Source of the DNA: a virus
Lineage: Duplodnaviria; Caudoviricetes
Reading direction: 5' to 3' (one strand)
Virus record (IMG/VR): IMGVR_UViG_3300033463_000075
Coordinates: 1-64,000 of that record
Length of the DNA stretch: 64,000 nucleotides
Shown here: positions 10-27,795 of the stretch, one piece after another
Layout of the letters: each line of letters starts with the position of its first letter
Position numbering within the stretch: the first letter of the stretch is position 1
Position numbers and translations under genes: made by a program
Notes under the pieces: model-generated
Told to the model about the DNA's origin: nothing
Seen by the model: only the letters and a program-made list of their open reading frames with translations
Database searches by the model: none

Positions 10-297
10 CTATCTTACCTCGCTTTCCCAAATAACTTCTTCACATTCGCTGTATTCAGGATTACTTACATTAACCTTTTCTACTCTAATATTAAAATAA
101 TCACCTTCTAGTTCGTCAAACTTTTTAATTTGATCATAATAATTATCAACTACATCTTGTAAAGTTTCAAAGCACTTAGCAAATTGTATTGCTTGATCTA
201 CTCTTGGAAATTGTGCCATTTGCACTTCAGTGTCAATACACATATCTTCCTTGTCATATCCTAATGCCCAAACCATATAAGTATATTCCTTTTCCAT
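10..297 (-). CDS. small acidic hypothetical early protein (95 aa)
   Basis: ORF with GGAGG RBS, ends TAG; part of a tightly packed cluster. Confidence 0.8.
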   Translation of the reverse strand: MEKEYTYMVWALGYDKEDMCIDTEVQMAQFPRVDQAIQFAKCFETLQDVVDNYYDQIKKFDELEGDYFNIRVEKVNVSNPEYSECEEVIWESEVR

Positions 298-300
298 AAC

Positions 301-477
301 TTAGTCCTCCTCTAGCATATCTATTGCATTATCTATATATCCCATTGCTTCACCAATGTTCCAGATAAATGTATCATCACTACCATCATCAGTATCTTGT
401 GCATAATCAGTTTCTTGAATTTCATCAAGTGCTTCATATAGTTCTACTAACTTATCTTTAATTTCAGGCTTAGTCAT
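301..477 (-). CDS. small acidic hypothetical protein (58 aa, MTKPEIKDKLVELYEALDEIQ...), not in ORF track
   Basis: Read manually; ATG at 477, TAA at 301-303, fills the gap between neighbours. Confidence 0.7.
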   Translation of the reverse strand: MTKPEIKDKLVELYEALDEIQETDYAQDTDDGSDDTFIWNIGEAMGYIDNAIDMLEED

Positions 478-721
478 TGAAATTGTCCCTCCTTCCTAAT
501 AAGTAATCTAGTGCTTGTGGTCTTTCTGTCATATCTGGCTCATAGTCAAAAATAACACTCTTGCCAGTTATCCACTCTTCTTCTTCCATATTAACTTTAA
601 CTACACCATCTTCTATAGTTAATCCCCAAATATAATCACCTTCTTGAAGTTCAAATACTTCTTCTGCTCTTTTATTTAGTTCGTCTAAATCCAATGTTGT
701 TCTAATAATCATATTAGTCAT
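470..721 (-). CDS. hypothetical early protein (83 aa)
   Basis: ORF track; operon-like packing. Confidence 0.75.
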   Translation of the reverse strand: MTNMIIRTTLDLDELNKRAEEVFELQEGDYIWGLTIEDGVVKVNMEEEEWITGKSVIFDYEPDMTERPQALDYLLGRRDNFND

Positions 722-724
722 TTA

Positions 725-952
725 TTAGTCCTCCAAATTTACACAATGATAGTCATAATCGTAATCACCGACGTCTTTGTCCCAATAAGAATTGCAGATT
801 TCAAAACAGCCATCTTCTTTATAGGTATTTATATTTACTATATCAAAACTACCAAACTTACTTGGGATTTCTCCAAATGCTTCTTCTAATTCATCTTTTG
901 TCTTAAACTGATCTAGATAATCCCAGCAATCGTTAATATGCTTAAATTCCAT
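725..952 (-). CDS. hypothetical acidic early protein (75 aa)
   Basis: ORF with GGAGG RBS. Confidence 0.75.
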   Translation of the reverse strand: MEFKHINDCWDYLDQFKTKDELEEAFGEIPSKFGSFDIVNINTYKEDGCFEICNSYWDKDVGDYDYDYHCVNLED

Positions 953-961
953 AATCCCTCC

Positions 962-1243
962 CTAAATATTGTGTTCCCAAACTTTGCCTTTGTAAATGGT
1001 AGTTAAACCATCAGCATCTTCTAATTCAATAGAGTATTCAGTATCAGTTAATTCTTCGTCTACAATTTCGCCATAGCCCTTTAGTTGTGACTTAACTGTT
1101 TTGAAATCTCTTTTTAATTGTTCTTTTGCTTTTTCAGTATCTATAAACATTCTTTGTGAATCTAATGATAGATTTGTAAATGATCCACCAACTGGTGAAT
1201 ATTGTTGTCCTGAACTATAAGTTGTATAAACTGCTATTAACAT
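962..1243 (-). CDS. hypothetical early protein (93 aa)
   Basis: ORF with GGAGG RBS directly below a sigma70/sigmaA-type promoter. Confidence 0.8.
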   Translation of the reverse strand: MLIAVYTTYSSGQQYSPVGGSFTNLSLDSQRMFIDTEKAKEQLKRDFKTVKSQLKGYGEIVDEELTDTEYSIELEDADGLTTIYKGKVWEHNI

Positions 1244-1269
1244 ATAATTACCTCCATTCCTATACTTAT

Positions 1270-1298
1270 ATTATATCACTTGCAATACAAATTGTAAA
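1270..1298 (-). promoter_or_regulatory. host-type early promoter TTTACA-N17-TATAAT
   Basis: Minus strand: -35 at 1298-1293, -10 at 1275-1270. Confidence 0.8.
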
Positions 1299-1333
1299 CT
1301 ACTTTTTGTAAAGTTATTGTAAAGTATACTCAT

Positions 1334-1558
1334 TTAATTATGTTGTTTGTAGTAATAGTTAAGTGCTTCTTTAACTCTTGCTTCATCTTTAGCATTCTTG
1401 AAAACCCATTCTTCTTCATTCTCAACCATATCTACTCCAATCATATCTGCAATTTCTTGTAAGTCGTGTTGATAGTCATCAAAGTCACAAAAAAAGTGTC
1501 CTGAATTTCTTTCCATTTCAACTGCTTCATCTATTGCTTTGTAATCTTTCTTTAACAT
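1334..1558 (-). CDS. hypothetical early protein (74 aa)
   Basis: ORF with GGAGG RBS and own promoter. Confidence 0.75.
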   Translation of the reverse strand: MLKKDYKAIDEAVEMERNSGHFFCDFDDYQHDLQEIADMIGVDMVENEEEWVFKNAKDEARVKEALNYYYKQHN

Positions 1559-1593
1559 AAGTATTTATCCTCCATTACTTATCTTCTATAATA

Positions 1594-1622
1594 ATTATAT
1601 CGCGTTTTATATAAAAAGTAAA
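1594..1622 (-). promoter_or_regulatory. early promoter TTTACT-N17-TATAAT
   Basis: Direct sequence match. Confidence 0.75.
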
Positions 1623-1638
1623 TATATTTATGTAAAAT

Positions 1639-1899
1639 CTACGCAAGATTGCTTTCATAATCTTTTATATAATCTATTACGCCATTTAATAGGTCCTCTA
1701 TAAAAGCAGCACCAAATGAATAGTTAACTAATTCAGTATAACCTTGTTCTGGATCAGTTGCCATAATAAATACTATATCACTAGAGCACTTACCTCTGTA
1801 AGATATACCTTCTAATAAATCATATACTTTACCTGTGCGAATACTTTTAATAGAATATCCTTCTTTTTCATCAAAAATAACTTCAAAATTGTCTTTCAT
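1639..1899 (-). CDS. hypothetical early protein (86 aa)
   Basis: ORF with GGAGG RBS and own promoter. Confidence 0.75.
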   Translation of the reverse strand: MKDNFEVIFDEKEGYSIKSIRTGKVYDLLEGISYRGKCSSDIVFIMATDPEQGYTELVNYSFGAAFIEDLLNGVIDYIKDYESNLA

Positions 1900-1924
1900 A
1901 CTTGACCTCCATTCTTATACATAT

Positions 1925-3510: not shown

Positions 3511-3593
3511 AAAAATATACTCCTGCTATAATATTATACATTAAATTTAGCATAATTTTCAGCAGGAATATATTCAAATCACAGAAGTTTTTA

Positions 3594-6130: not shown

Positions 6131-6544
6131 CTAAAATTTCATTCGCTTTTCTCTGTAGTCGATCAGATGCTCTTGGGGTCTTTCTTCTCCAGCTAAGATG
6201 TTTACTAAGTTTCCGCTAAGTAAGCAGTAGCAGTAAAATTCATCTAATATATCATGAGTAAGCTCTTGCTCTTTTGTGTAAAATTTAATACAAGTATCCA
6301 ACTGATAAACACCACCTACTGTGATAATGTCATTGTTGTTTCCTTCACTTACATCTATCAGATACTGCTTATACATAGCTTTGTGTGCTTTCTTGATAGC
6401 TTTGATAACCTTACGCATAGTATGGTAATATTCCACAACAAAAGCAGCTTGAGATCAATTCTTTATGAACTCAAACTTGGAATGCTCGCCTTTTATTGCT
6501 CTTGCTATTAATTCTGTAATTTCGTCTTTATTATTTGCCATCAT
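6131..6544 (-). CDS. hypothetical protein (137 aa with TGA=Trp at codon 30)
   Basis: ATG at 6544 is in frame with track ORF 6131-6436 through one TGA (6455-6457). Confidence 0.6.
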
Positions 6545-6575
6545 TATATTATACATTATTTTTATTAATAAAAAT

Positions 6576-6608
6576 AAAAACCTGGTCCGTCGACAACCAG
6601 GTTTCTTT
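6576..6608. terminator. intrinsic terminator hairpin AAACCTGGT/ACCAGGTTT
   Basis: Inverted repeat flanked by A/T tracts, downstream of 6693-8141. Confidence 0.65.
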
Positions 6609-6692
6609 GTTGCATCTGATAGGAGGTGTTTCAGATGCTCATTATATTATACAATGTCAAATTTGAAATTTTAGTAATTTCGTTTAAATTTT

Positions 6693-8141: not shown

Positions 8142-8236
8142 TTTTATCCTCTCAGTTTTTTTATAATAAAAAAAGATAGACTAAACTATCACATAATTTA
8201 GCCTATCTAAGGAGGTGTATTATGAAAAAAGCAAAA

Positions 8237-9784: not shown

Positions 9785-9813
9785 ATTATACGCTTTTTAT
9801 AGGCATTTGTAAA
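9785..9813 (-). promoter_or_regulatory. early promoter TTTACA-N17-TATAAT
   Basis: Direct sequence match. Confidence 0.8.
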
Positions 9814-9843
9814 CCTTTTAAAGCAAAATTTAAGTAAAATATC

Positions 9844-9982
9844 TGAAATTGTCACAATTTCGGGCTAAATAATTTAGCAAAAATGAGATTATTGTAATTT
9901 CAGAAATCTCGGTAATTTCAAAAACGAGATTATGCTAATTTCGCTAATTTCGGCAATTTCGTGTGTGTTACGCATATGCATA
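9844..9982. repeat. cluster of imperfect palindromes GARATT-N5-AATYTC plus an alternating purine-pyrimidine tract
   Basis: gaaattgtcacaatttc, gagattattgtaatttc, gaaatctcggtaatttc, gagattatgctaatttc. Confidence 0.7.
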
Positions 9983-10085
9983 AAGAAAAATAGCCAAAAT
10001 TGAGTAAATTTTAGCCATTTTTTGTCTATATTTGCATAAATTTAGAGTTTTTTGCAAATTTCAGCAGAATTTTGCAAGATTTAAG

Positions 10086-11849
10086 CTATAAATTTAGTAG
10101 AATATTGGTCATTTCACGCTTCAAACTCTCAGAAACTTGGTTAGTTTTGTGATCAATTACGTATTCTGCTAAGTCTTTCTTGTAAGTAGCTATATCATGA
10201 ACCCTTTCATCTATAGTATCTTTGCAGATTAAAGTGTAAATAAATGCAGGTCTATCATTATTAACTCTGTGTATTCTGTCATGTGACTGAGCATTTTCAG
10301 TATAATTCCACTTCTCATCTAAGCAAATTTCATATGCTGCTGCATTTAAAGTATGTCCTGTACCCATAGAATCGTGAGTACAAAGTATGATTTTAGTGTT
10401 TGGATCTGTCTGGAACTTGACTTTATTAGCTTCTCTCTCATCTGCTGAGTTATCACCTGTGCAAACTAGCGGATTATAAGACGCTAAAAGATCAGCTAAC
10501 TGATAAACTGGCTCTTTAAAAGTAGACATTACTACTACTTTCTCACCTTTATCAGCTAATTCTTGAGCTAATTCTACACATCGGTCTATCTTAGAAGACA
10601 TTACTGGGTTAGTTGTTAGTATTCCTGGGCAGGCAGTAGCTTGTCTAAGTCTTGTAGTAAGTGCTAATAGGTTGTTACTGTTAAGCTCTATCTTATCTAC
10701 TTCCTCTTTAACGCCATCTACAATAGCATCATAGAAGCGTCTGTGCTCATCTGACATATCTACTAGCTCATAGATCAGTGTCTTCTCTGGTAAACCTTTG
10801 ATCTGCTCTTTAACTCTTCTTACACTACAGTTATCGATCTCTTCCTGTACAGCATCTAAGTTCTTGTAGCCTACTACTTGAGAGCTTGCAAAGCCACCGA
10901 AGACACAGTGTGCGCTCTTGTAGCCTGTAAGTGTGCTATTATCCACACCTATCCAGTGCAAAGGCAAGTAAGCATTAACAGGGTTAGATGTTATCAGTGT
11001 TCCTGTAGCAGCTACTAAATAGTCAGCAGTAAGCTTAAGTAAGTGATCACCCTGGGTAGAGCTTTTGTTAGAACACTTATGTACTTCATCTACAGCTATC
11101 ATTCCAAACTTATTAGGATTCTTCTTGGAATTGTAAGCTTCAATAAAATCAGCTGAACGTAATGTCTCGATGTTAGTAATGATGAAGAATTCTTCTATAG
11201 GTCTTCTTAGTTCATCTATTCTGTCTTTAACTGATCCTATTCTATGTGTTCCTCTTCTAGTCACATATTCGCCAAGTATTCTTACGCTTAAGTCACTGAA
11301 CTTATTAATCTCTGCCTTCCAGTTAGACTTCACTGAATTTACTCCACATATGATGAAGCAGTGATCTATTAAACCTCTCTTGTGTAAGGTCTCGGCTAAC
11401 TGAATAATTGTACAGGTCTTTCCTAAACCCATGTCATCTAGTAGCAACCACTTGTTAGTATTAAGTCCGTAGTTAATTGCCATCACCTGATGTGCTAAAG
11501 GTTTAAGCTTGAAACTATTGTACTCTTCTTGAGTTAAATCCTTGTCGCCGTACTTGCACTCAGAAAGATCAACTGGTTTTGAAATGTCGATCTCCTCTTG
11601 CTCTAGTCTTGGTCTAATGATGCTTTCATCTTGAAGCTCTAGCTTAATGTCATCTATTAAAGTCAGGCTGTCTAACAACATAGCTAAGTCACTTATGCTA
11701 CACTCTCATAACTGTGCTTTCTTATGATAGTATGCCAAAGGTAATGCCTTCAAAGCATTTACAACATCTGGGTTATATTCAGACTTAACTATTAAGCTCG
11801 TTAAACCTGAAACCTTTTGGGGTGGAAATATCTCAAAGATCTCTATCAT
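10086..11849 (-). CDS. SNF2-family DNA helicase/annealing ATPase (587 aa with TGA=Trp at codon 48)
   Basis: DDMGLGKT Walker A, DEVH Walker B, HDRIHR motif VI; ATG at 11849 is in frame through one TGA at 11706-11708. Confidence 0.85.
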
Positions 11850-12152
11850 CTATAGTAAGCTTGTACTTAAATCACTAAAATCTAATTCTTCTTTCTCTGC
11901 CTTTGTCTTAAAGCTCATTGATGCTTCTATTACAAATGGCTTATTACAATTGTCACATACATAATGCTCTACTAAAGCTGGCTCATAATCTTCTTCATAG
12001 TCTAAATAGATGATCTCGCCTGTAGGGCTCTTAACTAAATCTTCTGGTCTGCCTAATATATACTCAGGCAAATAAATCTCACTAGGTACATAATTTCAGC
12101 CGCAATGTGGGCATCTAATAACTGGTAAACCTTTTAAATCAATCTTACTCAT
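11850..12152 (-). CDS. double zinc-ribbon protein (100 aa; CPHCGW with TGA=Trp)
   Basis: ATG 12152 with GGAG-like RBS, in frame through TGA at 12096-12098; CPHC and CDNC pairs. Confidence 0.7.
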
Positions 12153-12244
12153 AAACTCTCTAATTCCTTTATCTCACTTATTTCAGCCATATTTCGGCTG
12201 TTAATCTGCTTTCTTTCTTTTTATTTATTTTTTCTTTGCTTTCT

Positions 12245-12345
12245 CTTAAGCTATACCGCATAGCTATATGCTTAGCTATACATATAAGCTATACTGCTAT
12301 GCTATGTATAAAGCTATATGAAAAAGCATTATATAAAGCATATAT
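12245..12345. repeat. short AGCTAT/AGCAT repeats in non-coding DNA
   Basis: At least five AGCTAT in about 70 bp. Confidence 0.6.
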
Positions 12346-12662
12346 ACATACCTCTGTATATACAATCTAACATAGTTAGATTGTGAAACTATCTATGATA
12401 GTTTCTAAAAAGAAAGAATTAATTACGTAGTAATTATAAGAAAGAAAAAGTGAGCTATTATTTTGCTTTCTTTATTAGCTTTAAAAGAAGCTTTTAAATA
12501 CTAATGAAGCTTCGCTTCATTATATTATACAATGCACATATAGCTAAAATAACAGTTTTTACAAAAATACTTCAAAAATTTTTTTTACCTATAAAAAGAT
12601 CTTCAATAAAAAAAGAATTATTTCGAAAGAAATTTGCTGTTATGAAAGAGAGAAAAAGAGAG

Positions 12663-12808
12663 AAAACGAAATTATCAAAATCTCGGCAATTTCAGAAAGC
12701 TCAAAAACGAAATTGTCACAATCTCGCCTGCTAAAAACGAAATTATCGCAATTTCGCGCATAATTATGCATACGCGCACACGCACATATGAAATTGTCAC
12801 AATTTCGG
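12663..12808. repeat. second cluster of GAAATT-N5-AATYTC palindromes
   Basis: Four clear copies; the 20-nt tgaaattgtcacaatttcgg is identical to that at 9844. Confidence 0.75.
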
Positions 12809-13022
12809 CCTCGTTATTGGCTTTTTAAGGCTTTTTCAGCTATTCGGCAAGATATTTTGCTTATTTTCAGCTATTTTTGCGATTTTGAGCCGAATTTTGA
12901 GCCCAGGGATAGCTTCTACCGCCTGTACGTTATGCTGTACGTACGAATTTCTGCTGATCAGAAGGCATTTTTTCTTCTGCCTTAAATATTTTTTAACTTT
13001 TTTCTGCAGAAAATGAAAAAAA

Positions 13023-13088
13023 CTAAATGAATACTGTATAATATAGTGATGCTGAGAGGAATATAATAAGAATTCAAATGTAATTCAT
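13023..13088 (-). CDS. 21-aa hydrophobic peptide MNYIWILIIFLSASLYYTVFI (TGA=Trp at codon 5)
   Basis: Perfect AGGAGGT RBS 5 nt upstream, TATAAT just above it, ends TAG. Confidence 0.4.
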
Positions 13089-13344
13089 AACAAACCTCCT
13101 TGTATATTATAAAGCTAATGGCACAATGCAGCTTCGGCCGTGCGGTTAACCAGTAGCTAAATAAAGCTGACCCACTCGGCAGTGAGCAGCTATCAAAAAA
13201 AGTGACCTGGTTTTTTCACCTCCTTTTTATAAATTATTTCCCAGGTCCTCCTCCCAGCATTAAACTAAGACACCTCCTATAGAGCTTTAAGTAAAAACTA
13301 TCAATACCTCCTAGATAGAAAAATACTTAGAGCTCTTTCTTTTT
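13049..13344 (+). ncRNA. candidate sRNA with five CCUCCU (anti-Shine-Dalgarno) motifs, at least two in hairpin loops
   Basis: TATAAT at 13037-13042; stems GACCTGG/CCAGGTC, CTATC/GATAG and AGAGCTTTAAGTA/TACTTAGAGCTCT (G-U only on + strand); terminal U-tract. Confidence 0.5.
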
Positions 13345-13459
13345 ATTCGCGGAGCATAAGAATAAAAAAATATTTTCTAAAAATATTTCAATATCTTCAA
13401 TCCCTATATATAGCATAAGGTCTAGCATAGTATGCATTAGGTTGCAGTATAAGCATATA

Positions 13460-13880
13460 ATAGCTTCTGCCTCAGCTTATATATAGCTTTGGTCCCAAGC
13501 TTTCCCTTAGCTTCTGCCCGGTGCTTTGCCCTATGCTTTCGCCTTTGGCATGATGCGAATCTGGGCATGGCTGATGGCGGCGGCTCTGACGACGGCTAAC
13601 CCTGGTGCTTTGGGGCAGGGCTAACGTGCACGCGCACGGACCGACTGCTAAATATGTCTACGGGCGGCAGCAAGACGGCAGTACGCGGCTAAGTGCGCCT
13701 GGGGCCCTATGCTTTGGCATGAAGCTTTTGCACTAAGCTTTCGACTGCTTTTGGTATAGCTTTCGGGATAAGCTTTCGTCCTATGCTTTTCCCTATAGCT
13801 AAGTATAACTGCTTGATATTTCGGCTTCTATTCTGGGAATCGGCCTTCGGCCTTATATGCTTTACTTATGCTTATTATGC
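13460..13880. repeat. two arrays of (A/T)GCTTY repeats about every 11-13 bp flanking a GC-rich core (candidate origin or packaging site)
   Basis: About 20 units; core 13545-13705 with palindrome CGTGC-ACGC-GCACG. Confidence 0.55.
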
Positions 13881-13949
13881 TCTATATATAGTTGGTTCAT
13901 TAATGCAACTTTGCAAAAAATTTTTTTATTGCTGCTGGGAAAAAGAGCA

Positions 13950-13984
13950 AAAAATAAGGACCCTAAATTAATAGGATCCTTTTA
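13950..13984 (-). terminator. intrinsic terminator after the 574-aa gene
   Basis: AAGGATCCTA/TAGGGTCCTT stem then T-tract on the minus strand. Confidence 0.7.
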
Positions 13985-14006
13985 TCTTTGATTTTAGCTA
14001 ATTATT

Positions 14007-15731
14007 TTATGGTCTATAATAATACATTGTAACAACTTTTGGAGAAGCAGTAATTAAATCGCTTTGTGCATATTCTAACATTTCATATCAAAGCAATATA
14101 TCTGAATTCATTACTTCCATATAAAGTCCAATTTGTCCGTAAGCTGTATTACCACTCTTTCGTTTCAAGTATTCACCACTTCAACCTTGTGTTAAATAGC
14201 CTGTATATGATGCTCTCATAGACGATGAGATCATTCCATCATTTATCTCTAAATAGCAATAGGTAGGCGCTGGATTGACATAACTATTACTATGCACTTT
14301 AATTAAACCACTTCTATTGCTTGAACCTGAAAAGATGCTTATCTCGGTTTTACTCATAGTATAATAGCTACAAGTAATTGTTGATGTTATTTGTTTTCAA
14401 TCTGATGCAAGACTACTATTTGCTCGTATGGTAATAGTGCTGCCATAACTTTGTAAATCTCCAAGTGAATAATAATTTGTAGCTACTGTAGCAAAATCTC
14501 ATGATTGATAGTCTGTCCCATTAGTGCTTGATATACTATAGCTTGACCAAGCAAATCTATTTGGCTGAGCATTTCTTGTCAATGTATTTTCAAAACCTGC
14601 ACCAGCTCCTGCTTCTGGCACTTTAGCATTATTATATCCTATGTGGGCGCTGGCATCAACATTAGCTACACTACTTGTTGCTCAAGTTAAACCTGAGTCA
14701 GCTGTAAATGATACTGTATACTTACGTATAGTAAAATCACTATTTTGTTTTAAAAGTCATAATCAACAATCTTGAGACGCATTATAATATCAAGAACTAA
14801 GCATTGTATTTTCTACAACATATGATCCAAAATAAGGATCATTACCATTTATAGTTGGTACATTATTATAGAAAGTACCCTTTAATGCTGATGAGCTTTT
14901 TGTGCTATGTGTAGCTTTTGTATAGGTGCATTTTACACTGTTATTATGTGTAGCCGCTAAATTGCTAGTAGCTGTTGGATTTATAGCTGTAAAAGTTAAA
15001 GTAGCAGCAGCACGCTCACAATCTGGGTCATAACAAATAAGTTTTTCTTGAAATTCAGCTGGATTACTTAGCGTCTTTCAATAATCATTAATTATACCCG
15101 TCTTATATTCTCTATATCTAATTTTATAAACAAGCGATATAGTTAAATCAGTAGTAAGCGTTGTTATACCACTAGAAATTCCTGAGATACTATCTAAATA
15201 GCTAATAGCCTTAGCACTATCTGCGGCAGATATTAGAGATAGTCCTGTAATATCTGTAGCACCATCAAACTGCACTTGATAAGAATCTGGAAACATCTTT
15301 TTTAGGGCAGGATTTTTGTTAATCACGCATTCATTTGCTATAGTGCCGTAATCAAAAGTTAAACTATATGAATATACATTCTCACTTCCATAATATGGCT
15401 TGGTAGCATAACTTGCGCATCTTCCAGAGGTAGATAAAATTTGCTCACGCACAAATGATATAGTAGTTCCATATGGTAAATAGTAAACTGCAGAAGTTGG
15501 ATATGTTATGCTTTCATTATAACCTTTATACTCATCACCATTTTCTCAGTTATATGTAGCATTAATTGTTAACTTTAATGGTTTATGTCAAATAGCAGTA
15601 GCAGTTTCACTTGCTGGGTTTAACTTTATTTGTAATACCTTAATATCTGCAGCAGCACTATTACCATCTATATATTTGATAGCTGTTAATTCTGTAGCTG
15701 TATTACTTTCAAAGATTTGTTCGTCAGCCAT
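14007..15731 (-). CDS. 574-aa Ser/Thr/Asn/Tyr-rich beta-strand protein, probable virion fibre or decoration protein (11 TGA=Trp)
   Basis: Translated by hand: no TAA/TAG for 1725 nt; AAGGAG RBS; the track shows only a 124-aa piece. Confidence 0.75.
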
Positions 15732-27219: not shown

Positions 27220-27795
27220 TTATGCTTTTGATATATCTTGCAGTGTCATTGTTCAGTCAATAACTAACGAATAGTTAGATTTCAAGTCTGATAGGTCGAT
27301 GGCATCCTCACTATCAGCTCACTGATTAGTACTGCTGTCTATAAATAAATATTCAGCACTTCTATTACTTATCTTAGACTCACTGCTATTGGTATCACAG
27401 TACAAAGCTAATTTATAAATAATTTGTTTTGAGCTACCTTCTTTTAATGTTATAAAAGCATAAGGTATTTTAAAGTGGTAAGTAGCACTGCAGCTATCAC
27501 TGGTAGATTCTAAAAGCATACCAGGTTCATGTAGTATAGCAGCAGACCTACATGTTTCTTTTGAAAAATCTGGATTAGCAGGTGTATCTGTCTCTGGGTC
27601 AACTACAGTAAATAGTCTAATTCTGCAAGGTCGTAGTTCATCATAATAAGCGCCAGTTAAGCAGTAGCCTAAAAATTTAAATAAAGGTTCTTTTCCTTTA
27701 TTATGTGACTCTGAGCTAAATAATACTTTATTATTAGGCCCGATAACACTTATTTTTACATGTCCTTCATATGATATTATGCTATTTGTATCCAT
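27220..27795 (-). CDS. baseplate/tail-fibre attachment protein (191 aa, two TGA=Trp)
   Basis: Read-through gives C-terminal ...SLVIDWTMTL and a TAA at 27220; gene order. Confidence 0.6.

Follow-up and report, generated by a model that had tools for sequence, protein, structure and literature searches.

What does a large uncultured phage keep in 1.85 kb of its genome in which no credible gene is found, and in which the core of the anti-Shine-Dalgarno (anti-SD) sequence of the ribosome is repeated five times? The question is raised by positions 12153-14006 of the first 64 kb (hereafter the window) of an 82-kb virus record in IMG/VR (IMGVR_UViG_3300033463_000075; Duplodnaviria, Caudoviricetes), the completeness of which is estimated at 41%. 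In the reading favoured here, which is considered moderately probable, the element at 13037-13344 within this gap specifies a + strand non-coding RNA of about 300 nt, opposite the neighbouring genes, that would display four anti-SD copies and mask the Shine-Dalgarno (SD) sequences of mRNAs. A + strand gene for a non-coding RNA with anti-SD motifs in loops is well supported by features of the DNA, namely a promoter of the class used by the phage, a terminator, compensatory base changes, strand-specific G-U pairs, exposed motifs and analogous RNA genes in related phages. From the same features we infer that the RNA is transcribed, that it pairs with mRNAs and which mRNAs these may be. A first-pass annotation of the locus had proposed a multivalent SD-occluding RNA that could silence host mRNAs; the RNA gene and the displayed motifs have held up well, and the silencing of host mRNAs stays a proposal.

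The hexamer CCTCCT starts at 13095, 13219, 13247, 13273 and 13307 on the + strand, exactly as first annotated, and four of these five copies read ACCTCCT. Both strands of the 64-kb window together have 13 copies, an unremarkable number given a mean of 11.4 in shuffles. The signal lies in the clustering: five copies fall within 218 nt, where about 0.02 are expected. The heptamer AGGAGGT occurs four times on the minus strand of the 82-kb record, every time inside the element. The phage does use SD sequences, GGAG and GAGG being about five times commoner on the coding strand. For 85 minus-strand genes, the best duplex with a generic 16S ribosomal RNA (rRNA) tail has a median energy of -7.6 kcal/mol, and the strongest reaches -13.9 kcal/mol. 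The complement of the 13219 site, at -18.1 kcal/mol, is the strongest SD-like site of the record, and three of the five strongest such sites are located in the element.

No convincing open reading frame crosses 13037-13344 under code 11, with TAG read as Gln or with TGA read as Trp, and the longest + strand frame within the element has at most 26 codons. A frame of 109 codons under code 4 (12764-13093) was rejected as a gene because it is shifted in a close relative, L002. The non-coding stretch is instead framed by a promoter motif of its own (13036-13047) and by a hairpin with a U-tract (13281-13347). The exact element is carried by three close sequences, namely the window, L002 (the same as contig L065) and L004, a Logan contig of 107 kb (run SRR11413597) with an SNF2 helicase at 86% identity. 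The parts of the element and of a second, smaller unit in the window are listed in Table 1.

Table 1. Features of the anti-SD RNA element and of the second RNA unit (window coordinates; site, anti-SD motif; Pu, predicted probability of being unpaired)
Feature	Position	Strand	Description
Promoter	13013-13047	+	Weak -35-like ATGAAA (13013-13018), 18-nt spacer, -10 TATAAT (13037-13042)
Closing helix P1, 5' arm, UGAUGCUGAGAGGA	13047-13060	+	At the predicted 5' end; pairs with 13249-13262 in folds
Site 1, AAACCUCCUUGU	13095-13100	+	Single-stranded, Pu 0.97; present in L002 and L004
Two internal G+C-richer hairpins	13113-13158, 13165-13191	+	Variable middle of the predicted RNA
Hairpin H2	13204-13247	+	7-bp stem GACCUGG/CCAGGUC (13204-13210/13241-13247), 30-nt loop
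Closing helix P1, 3' arm, UCCUCCCAGCAUUA	13249-13262	+	Overlaps site 3 (13247-13252); Pu 0.11-0.20
Site 4, ACACCUCCUAUAG	13273-13278	+	Single-stranded linker before the terminator, Pu 0.96
Terminator hairpin H1 and U-tract	13281-13347	+	13-bp outer stem, internal loop, 5-bp CUAUC/GAUAG, 11-nt loop
Small opposite-strand frame	13023-13088	-	Follows the complement of site 1; 4 codons with code 11, or 21, mostly hydrophobic, with TGA read as Trp
Second anti-SD RNA unit (locus 2)	6567-6652	-	Promoter GTATAATATAAT, hairpin, terminator CCUGGU..ACCAGG and U-tract; about 70 nt

The promoter scores 10/12, and its TATAAT, found where the first-pass annotation had placed it, is part of the motif GTATAATATAGT (13036-13047). 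Transcription is predicted to start near 13048-13050 on the + strand. Site 1 is directly preceded by CAUAAC, which is complementary to a start-codon region. Downstream, the loop closed by GACCTGG/CCAGGTC, noted in the first-pass annotation, is found in sequence and fold alike and carries UUUUCACCUCCUUUU with site 2 (13219-13224). The description of the terminator hairpin, with an 11-nt loop closed by CTATC/GATAG on a 13-bp stem with a lone U-G pair on the + strand (A-C on the minus strand), was likewise accurate. Its outer stem pairs 13281-13293 with 13324-13336, its inner stem pairs CTATC (13298-13302) with GATAG (13314-13318), and its loop AAUACCUCCUA (13303-13313) contains site 5 at 13307-13312. 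The hairpin is followed by the annotated U-tract, UUCUUUUUAUU (13337-13347).

Partition-function folding predicts four of the five CCUCC motifs to be unpaired with probabilities of 0.96-1.0 in both the window and L004, against a mean of 0.5 for the whole RNA; the value for site 2 in the H2 loop is 1.0. Sites 1 and 4 are predicted to be single-stranded, site 2 to lie in a hairpin loop and site 5 in the terminator loop. Since site 3 (13247) is paired in the closing helix P1, the RNA would display four anti-SD motifs and not five. The earlier description of five displayed motifs thus holds for four of them and fails for the 13247 copy.

The structure was compared among the three close sequences. 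The promoter motif is kept letter for letter in L002 and L004 within otherwise variable sequence, and its distance to P1 is 5-7 nt in all three phages. P1 itself is kept as a helix with changed sequence in both relatives and gains one pair in L002. The H2 stem reads GGCUUGG/CCAAGCC in L002, which amounts to two compensatory pairs, and is wholly different in L004 (CUCAU/AUGAG), while the loop core UUUUCACCUCCUUUU is invariant in all three. The inner stem of H1 changes from CUAUC/GAUAG to CUAGC/GCUAG by one compensatory pair (U-A to G-C), and the 11-nt loop is identical throughout. Site 4 is present in L004 as CCCUCCUAU and absent from L002. In the variable middle, an AGCUG/CAGCU stem is common to the window and L004; the remainder of this region is not conserved in L002. 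Across the related phages the stems covary and the loops are invariant, whereas the first-pass annotation had named non-conserved loops as one outcome that would refute its proposal.

A blastn search of the whole gap against a phage GenBank collection gave no match, and an exact-pattern scan for the H1 core in viral and metagenome contigs returned only L002/L065 together with about 50 chance matches without complementary stems. A 23-nt match to the H1 core in the chromosome of Brevibacillus fluminis (L070:4000-4060) was set aside as a chance likeness. It lies upstream of a gene and can fold into a small hairpin, AACUA[GGAGGUAUUG]UUAGUU, with an SD-like motif, which is followed by the real SD of that gene.

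The open frames of the window lie nearly all on the minus strand. The strand of the RNA was examined through promoter, terminator, pairing and transcription context. The motif GTATAATAT has ten copies on the minus strand, almost all of them intergenic and just upstream of gene starts. On the + strand it is found three times; one copy (20933) precedes the only + strand gene of the window and another is the 13036 site. Of the longer form TATAATATA(A/G)T, the minus strand has seven copies, and the only + strand copy is the one at the element. Written as (T)GTATAATATA(A/G)T, this early-type motif is located at 3539, 6554, 6652, 9791, 12530, 13036, 20830, 20933, 25535 and beyond. A second, late-type motif, GCTAAATTA, is mostly found just upstream of genes (17 copies on the minus strand, one on the + strand). 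No convincing copy of it is present at the element, where only a weak variant, CTAAATGA, is found at 13023.

At the other end of the element, H1 folds with -19.9 kcal/mol (z -5.1) as + strand RNA and with -18.4 kcal/mol (z -3.3) as minus-strand RNA, and a U-tract flanks it on the + strand only; L004 carries GCUUUUUUAUU at this position. In the window, the H1 outer stem has one irregular pair, a U-G of the + strand that becomes A-C on the minus strand. The wobble occupies the same position in the window and L002 and a neighbouring one in L004, where the wobble of the window is a C-G pair; the neighbouring position, too, is an A-C mismatch on the minus strand. The fold of the whole + strand RNA is more stable than that of shuffled sequences (z -3.9). 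The minus-strand operon upstream of the element ends at a terminator (13981-13956), neither of the two promoter motifs of the phage was found on the minus strand between this terminator and the element, and the next minus-strand promoter (12530) lies downstream of it.

The same gap could in principle serve as DNA, with an origin of replication, a packaging site or repeats of the genome ends; the hairpins would then be DNA structures or binding places for proteins, and the motif cluster an incidental feature. The gap is bordered on one side by a 574-codon gene (14007-15731) and on the other by a Zn-ribbon gene (11850-12152) and the SNF2 helicase gene (10086-11849). Besides the element it holds operator-like palindromes of 17 bp (type GAAATT-N5-AATTTC, 12667-12805) and, in its part 13345-14006, a GC-rich core of 160 bp (56% G+C against 33% in the genome) flanked by short GCTT-type repeats (core and repeats together at 13460-13880). 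The contigs of several relatives start or stop in or beside the gap, so that it may hold genome ends or repeats that break assemblies. Covarying stems with invariant loops are, in contrast, the signature of an RNA with functional loops; promoter and terminator frame the element exactly, and an asymmetry of G-U pairs is meaningless for duplex DNA. A purely DNA-level role of the element is thus regarded as highly improbable.

A second anti-SD RNA unit is present in the window (locus 2, Table 1). Its hairpin, GCAUCUGA[AACACCUCCUA]UCAGAUGC (6638-6612, minus strand), is separated by a short spacer from the terminator; the unit folds with -26.6 kcal/mol (z -5.6), and its loop is identical to the H1 loop (13303-13313) in 10 of 11 positions. 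CCUCC, promoter and terminator are all located on the minus strand here. The copy of the unit in L004 differs by one compensatory pair and one U-G pair. A further 17-bp palindrome (6665-6681) lies immediately upstream of the locus 2 promoter. A similar box, GAGRCAATTT..AAATTTC, precedes the promoter of the small RNA (sRNA) in many relatives, and this recurrence suggests that the RNAs are controlled by a DNA-binding protein.

Counterparts of locus 2 were found when 80 loci around SNF2 homologues from viral contigs were examined. They occur in the corresponding place of at least 13 distinct related jumbo phages, always on the gene-sense strand, as units of 75-150 nt. In each unit, a 5' hairpin is followed by a single-stranded (G)UUUCCUCCUUUG and a terminator whose loop carries UUCCUCC. 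One of the two CCUCC motifs is located within the single-stranded CCUCCUUU and the other in the terminator loop, and all of them lie on the strand of promoter and terminator. In the alignment of this short-form family, 95.9% of cells pair and 12 of 17 pairs are changed on both sides, a level reached by none of 500 shuffles; slid controls gave 36-45% pairing. The alignment was fitted to its own model, which flatters these numbers; RNAalifold on a plain MAFFT alignment points the same way. The covariance model of the short family (R1) matched neither locus of the window, and the window RNAs are therefore related to it by layout and loop motif, not by alignable sequence. Because related phages carry similar small RNAs, these RNAs are probably a phage tool for controlling translation.

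L090 and L113 are more distant relatives (SNF2 helicase identities of 51% and 48%, respectively). In each of them an RNA gene lies some 0.85 kb upstream of the Zn-ribbon gene and opposite to it, which matches the 300-nt element in place and orientation. Both genes have a promoter with GTATAAT, GUGAGG at the 5' end, CCUCCUU motifs that are exposed, and a terminator. On the reverse strand of L113 (about 9799-10100), two antisense RNA units stand in tandem in the equivalent gap, each behind TTGTATAAT and each starting with GUGAG; in the second, a closing helix surrounds two CCUCCUU motifs. In the window itself, a third anti-SD motif, AAUACACCUCCUUAG, is found at 8168-8221 (minus strand) in the 3' untranslated end of a methyltransferase gene, directly before a terminator hairpin, and could be the source of a 3'UTR-derived sRNA. 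The strand opposite it has a perfect SD with an ATG and a frame of 40 codons.

Several points weigh against the favoured reading. The strand, ends and expression of the + strand RNA are predictions from the sequence. The -35 element is weak. For the 11-mer promoter motif, a base-composition estimate puts the chance expectation on the + strand of the 82 kb at about 0.7 copies, close to the one observed, so that the promoter argument rests on conservation and position and not on count. H1 was not listed by a scan for consensus terminators, as its loop exceeds 8 nt. Only three close sequences have the exact RNA, and that of L002 is truncated within H1. A bare CCUCC could pair with almost every SD and so does not account for selectivity. 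The minus strand, moreover, folds well too (z -3.1), and in the window one pair each of P1 and of the hairpin at 13165-13191 is a G-U wobble on the minus strand only, being A-C on the + strand.

These last observations bear on the alternative offered by the first-pass annotation, a minus-strand sponge. In the wider form considered here, a functional minus-strand leader or decoy RNA with five strong SDs, some of them in hairpin loops, would soak up 30S subunits or a GGA-binding protein such as CsrA, or load ribosomes for downstream genes. In favour of it, the genes all lie on the minus strand, which at the element also has the strongest SD-like sites of the record and a lower computed energy than the + strand, and G-U pairs specific to it are found in two helices. 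A sponge of the CsrB/RsmZ type would carry many GGA motifs in short hairpin loops; on the minus strand, two of the five AGGAGG copies lie in hairpin loops. The upstream operon, however, ends at the terminator at 13981-13956, after which neither promoter motif is found before the promoter at 12530, already past the element. H1 lacks a U-tract on the minus strand and has A-C mismatches there. At locus 2 and throughout the related family, promoter and terminator belong to the CCUCC strand, which rules out the GGAGG strand as the product in these cases; in the family the GGAGG strand has neither of the two. The sponge is consequently disfavoured, being without promoter or terminator at the element and inapplicable to the family, and we regard it as quite improbable.

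A cis-antisense arrangement resembling a type I toxin-antitoxin pair was considered as well. A small minus-strand mRNA (SD at 13100, ATG at 13088) would encode a short hydrophobic peptide and be repressed by the + strand RNA as its antisense, with the remaining CCUCC motifs in a secondary part. As the first-pass annotation had seen, four of the five minus-strand SDs lead to no real open frame; the 13100 copy alone is followed by a start codon at a workable spacing, which opens a frame of 4 or 21 codons. A further point against the favoured reading is that this start codon opposite site 1 is kept at ideal spacing in the window, L002 and L004, and the minus strand could thus be read there. The frame of the window is a hydrophobic 21-mer under code 4, and the strand opposite locus 2 also has an SD with an ATG and a frame of 23-26 amino acids. 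The peptide, however, is not conserved: L004 has 6-7 codons ending in TGA TAA, L002 has a different, frame-shifted frame of 86 codons, and the opposite-strand frame of L090 is not hydrophobic when read by eye. No promoter motif of the phage serves the minus strand at this place, four further conserved anti-SD motifs would go unexplained, and the family occurs in relatives without an evident frame of this kind. The frame at 13023-13088 is judged not to be a conserved gene, and the toxin-antitoxin-like arrangement is unlikely.

Rfam was searched with the whole window at gathering score and with four sub-regions at E-values up to 5 or 10, as had been suggested at the outset, and no family gave a match above threshold. 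The closest known designs are those of LhrC, RsaE/RoxS and the cuckoo RNAs. In LhrC of Listeria monocytogenes (RF00616), each site can pair with the SD region of a target (PMC4132741). The locus 2 family has the LhrC layout of a 5' hairpin, a single-stranded CCUCCUUU and a terminator loop with UUCCUCC, and the 300-nt RNA would extend it to four sites. The motif of LhrC, in contrast, is UCCC, whereas that of the phage is the full anti-SD CCUCC(U), and the present RNA is phage-encoded, three times longer and provided with a closing helix. The LhrC model (gathering threshold 110 bits) gave no match in 13030-13360 or 6540-6680 at E-values up to 10, and 16.9 bits (E 1.7) on a relative, L077, one of the two best alignments below threshold, the other being FsrA on locus 2. 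With four sites unpaired at probabilities of at least 0.96, the element has the site-display architecture of LhrC, which is a shared architecture and not homology.

In the cuckoo RNAs of Alphaproteobacteria (CcsR1-4/RSs0680 and the alpha-r14 RNA NfeR1), 2-4 hairpin loops with CCUCCUCCC sit on stems that covary freely (PMC4615179). Repeated display of an anti-SD motif and compensatory changes in the stems are common to both. The cuckoo RNAs are encoded by alphaproteobacterial chromosomes, while the phage RNA is of another lineage and without an Rfam match. It also departs from the cuckoo definition of 2-4 adjacent hairpins with CCUCCUCCC in each loop: its only CCUCCUCCC (13247-13255) is paired in P1, its loops carry AAUACCUCCUA and UCACCUCCUUU, and it would display (A/C)ACCUCCU, two of the four sites being in single-stranded stretches and not in loops.

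RsaE/RoxS and FsrA of Bacillota are similar in being trans-acting RNAs with unpaired C-rich motifs, followed by U-rich sequence, that mask SD regions. The CCUCCUUUGUU stretch of the phage family may resemble the CCCCUUUGUU box of RsaE. These RNAs differ in that they are genes of host chromosomes tied to metabolic regulons. The RsaE model gave no match in the Rfam searches, some of which were run at E-values up to 10, and the FsrA model, the threshold of which is 80 bits, scored 17.1 bits, at locus 2 alone. RsaE and FsrA are among the proven cases of C-rich RNAs that mask an SD (PMC4132741).

Another point of comparison is given by regulatory RNAs of phages and mobile elements whose loops occlude a ribosome binding site. 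Staphylococcal SprD lies on a pathogenicity island. SprD is named among the UCCC sRNAs (PMC4132741), and the c4 RNA of phages P1 and P7 is a phage regulatory RNA that blocks a ribosome binding site via complementary loop sequences (PMC12197685). Both act on one defined message by specific complementarity, whereas the RNA described here has a generic anti-SD core in four copies and comes from a lytic-looking jumbo phage with a recoded stop codon. In a review of phage sRNAs (PMC12197685), antisense RNAs that block ribosome binding sites, such as c4, are covered, and nothing of a four-site anti-SD design was found. The initial remark that no such phage RNA was known needs the correction that the kind of RNA has precedents, since C-rich or anti-SD sRNAs of bacteria (LhrC, RsaE/RoxS, cuckoo) are well known. 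By analogy, the RNA would act like LhrC, RsaE or the cuckoo RNAs, and it belongs to none of these families.

Eleven letters of the H2 loop, UCACCUCCUUU, match the 3' tail of 16S rRNA. Together with the multivalent and exposed motifs, this likeness raises the idea of a decoy of the 16S tail that, in place of acting on mRNAs, titrates a protein or nuclease recognising the anti-SD, e.g., an abortive-infection toxin that cleaves the 16S tail or an rRNA-binding factor. Toxins that remove the anti-SD do exist, e.g., a MazF of Mycobacterium tuberculosis (PMC12274833). No candidate binding protein or defence system was identified, the characterised sRNAs with such loops that were checked pair with SD regions (PMC4132741, PMC4615179), and the anti-start-codon stretch at site 1 is better suited to pairing with mRNA. 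A decoy function is therefore thought improbable.

Under the favoured reading of an SD-masking RNA, transcription would begin near 13048 at an early-type promoter resembling those of the host RNA polymerase, and the 5' end would pair with 13249-13262 and so close the molecule, which the long hairpin and the U-tract would end near 13345. The core of the 16S anti-SD tail, (A)CCUCCU, would then be presented unpaired four times, in a 5' single strand, a 30-nt loop, a linker and the terminator loop. Bacterial sRNAs that occlude ribosome binding sites are laid out in this way, and the RNA is therefore taken to pair with the SD regions of mRNAs and to block binding of the 30S subunit, in the manner of bacterial C-rich sRNAs. 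Flanking letters, such as the CAUAAC before site 1, may add specificity for whole initiation regions, and site 1 may cover the start codon too. Since the SDs of the phage are short and weak, a multivalent RNA with the full-length anti-SD would prefer long and strong SDs. Its prey may thus be host messages or the few phage genes with strong SDs at 10-1900.

This run of small genes (10-1900, minus strand) has the strongest SDs of the phage (GGAGGT, GGGAGGG, GAGGAGGA), and its members are the best in-silico partners of both site 1 and the motif at 8215. The best computed phage partners of site 1 also include a start near 27221 and the start of the 574-amino-acid late gene, all of them given without a figure for significance.

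The genome in which the RNA is found reads TGA as tryptophan. Many phage genes are intact only under this recoding; the 574-codon gene beside the gap, for example, has 11 TGA codons in frame. No tRNA gene, including any for a suppressor tRNA, was found in the window or in the 82-kb record, and no release-factor gene or prfB homologue was found in the 82-kb record. Against this background, both kinds of anti-SD RNA might be parts of a takeover of translation and not regulators of particular genes, an idea to which very little probability is given. A flood of exposed copies of the 16S tail would strip host messages with strong SDs from the ribosomes, and phage messages with weak SDs would escape. 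In a more speculative version, the RNAs would mask the SD-like frameshift stimulator in the host gene for release factor 2 (RF2), lower the level of RF2 and thereby aid the change of UGA from stop to Trp. In one Bacillota prfB, AGGGGG lies three bases ahead of CUUUGA, and pairing with CCUCCU is possible via one G-U pair. A crude measure of open frames across the SNF2 loci was uninformative as to a link between anti-SD RNAs and TGA recoding.

The masking of ribosome binding sites by C-rich loops of sRNAs is well studied in bacteria. Conserved anti-SD RNA genes, complete from promoter to terminator, in large phages with a recoded stop codon were not found described in those parts of the literature that were covered. 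As the family extends over two loci and many relatives, it provides an alignment for defining a new RNA family and for finding it in other phages. If the RNAs are made, one RNA with four identical seeds, set against reporters with strong and weak SDs, would also be a simple and testable model, and these phages would hold a general, multivalent handle on translation initiation that is built on the recognition sequence of the ribosome itself. The anti-SD RNA would then be matched by the unusually weak SDs of the phage's own genes, and beside the switch of the genetic code there would be an RNA-based layer of host shut-off.

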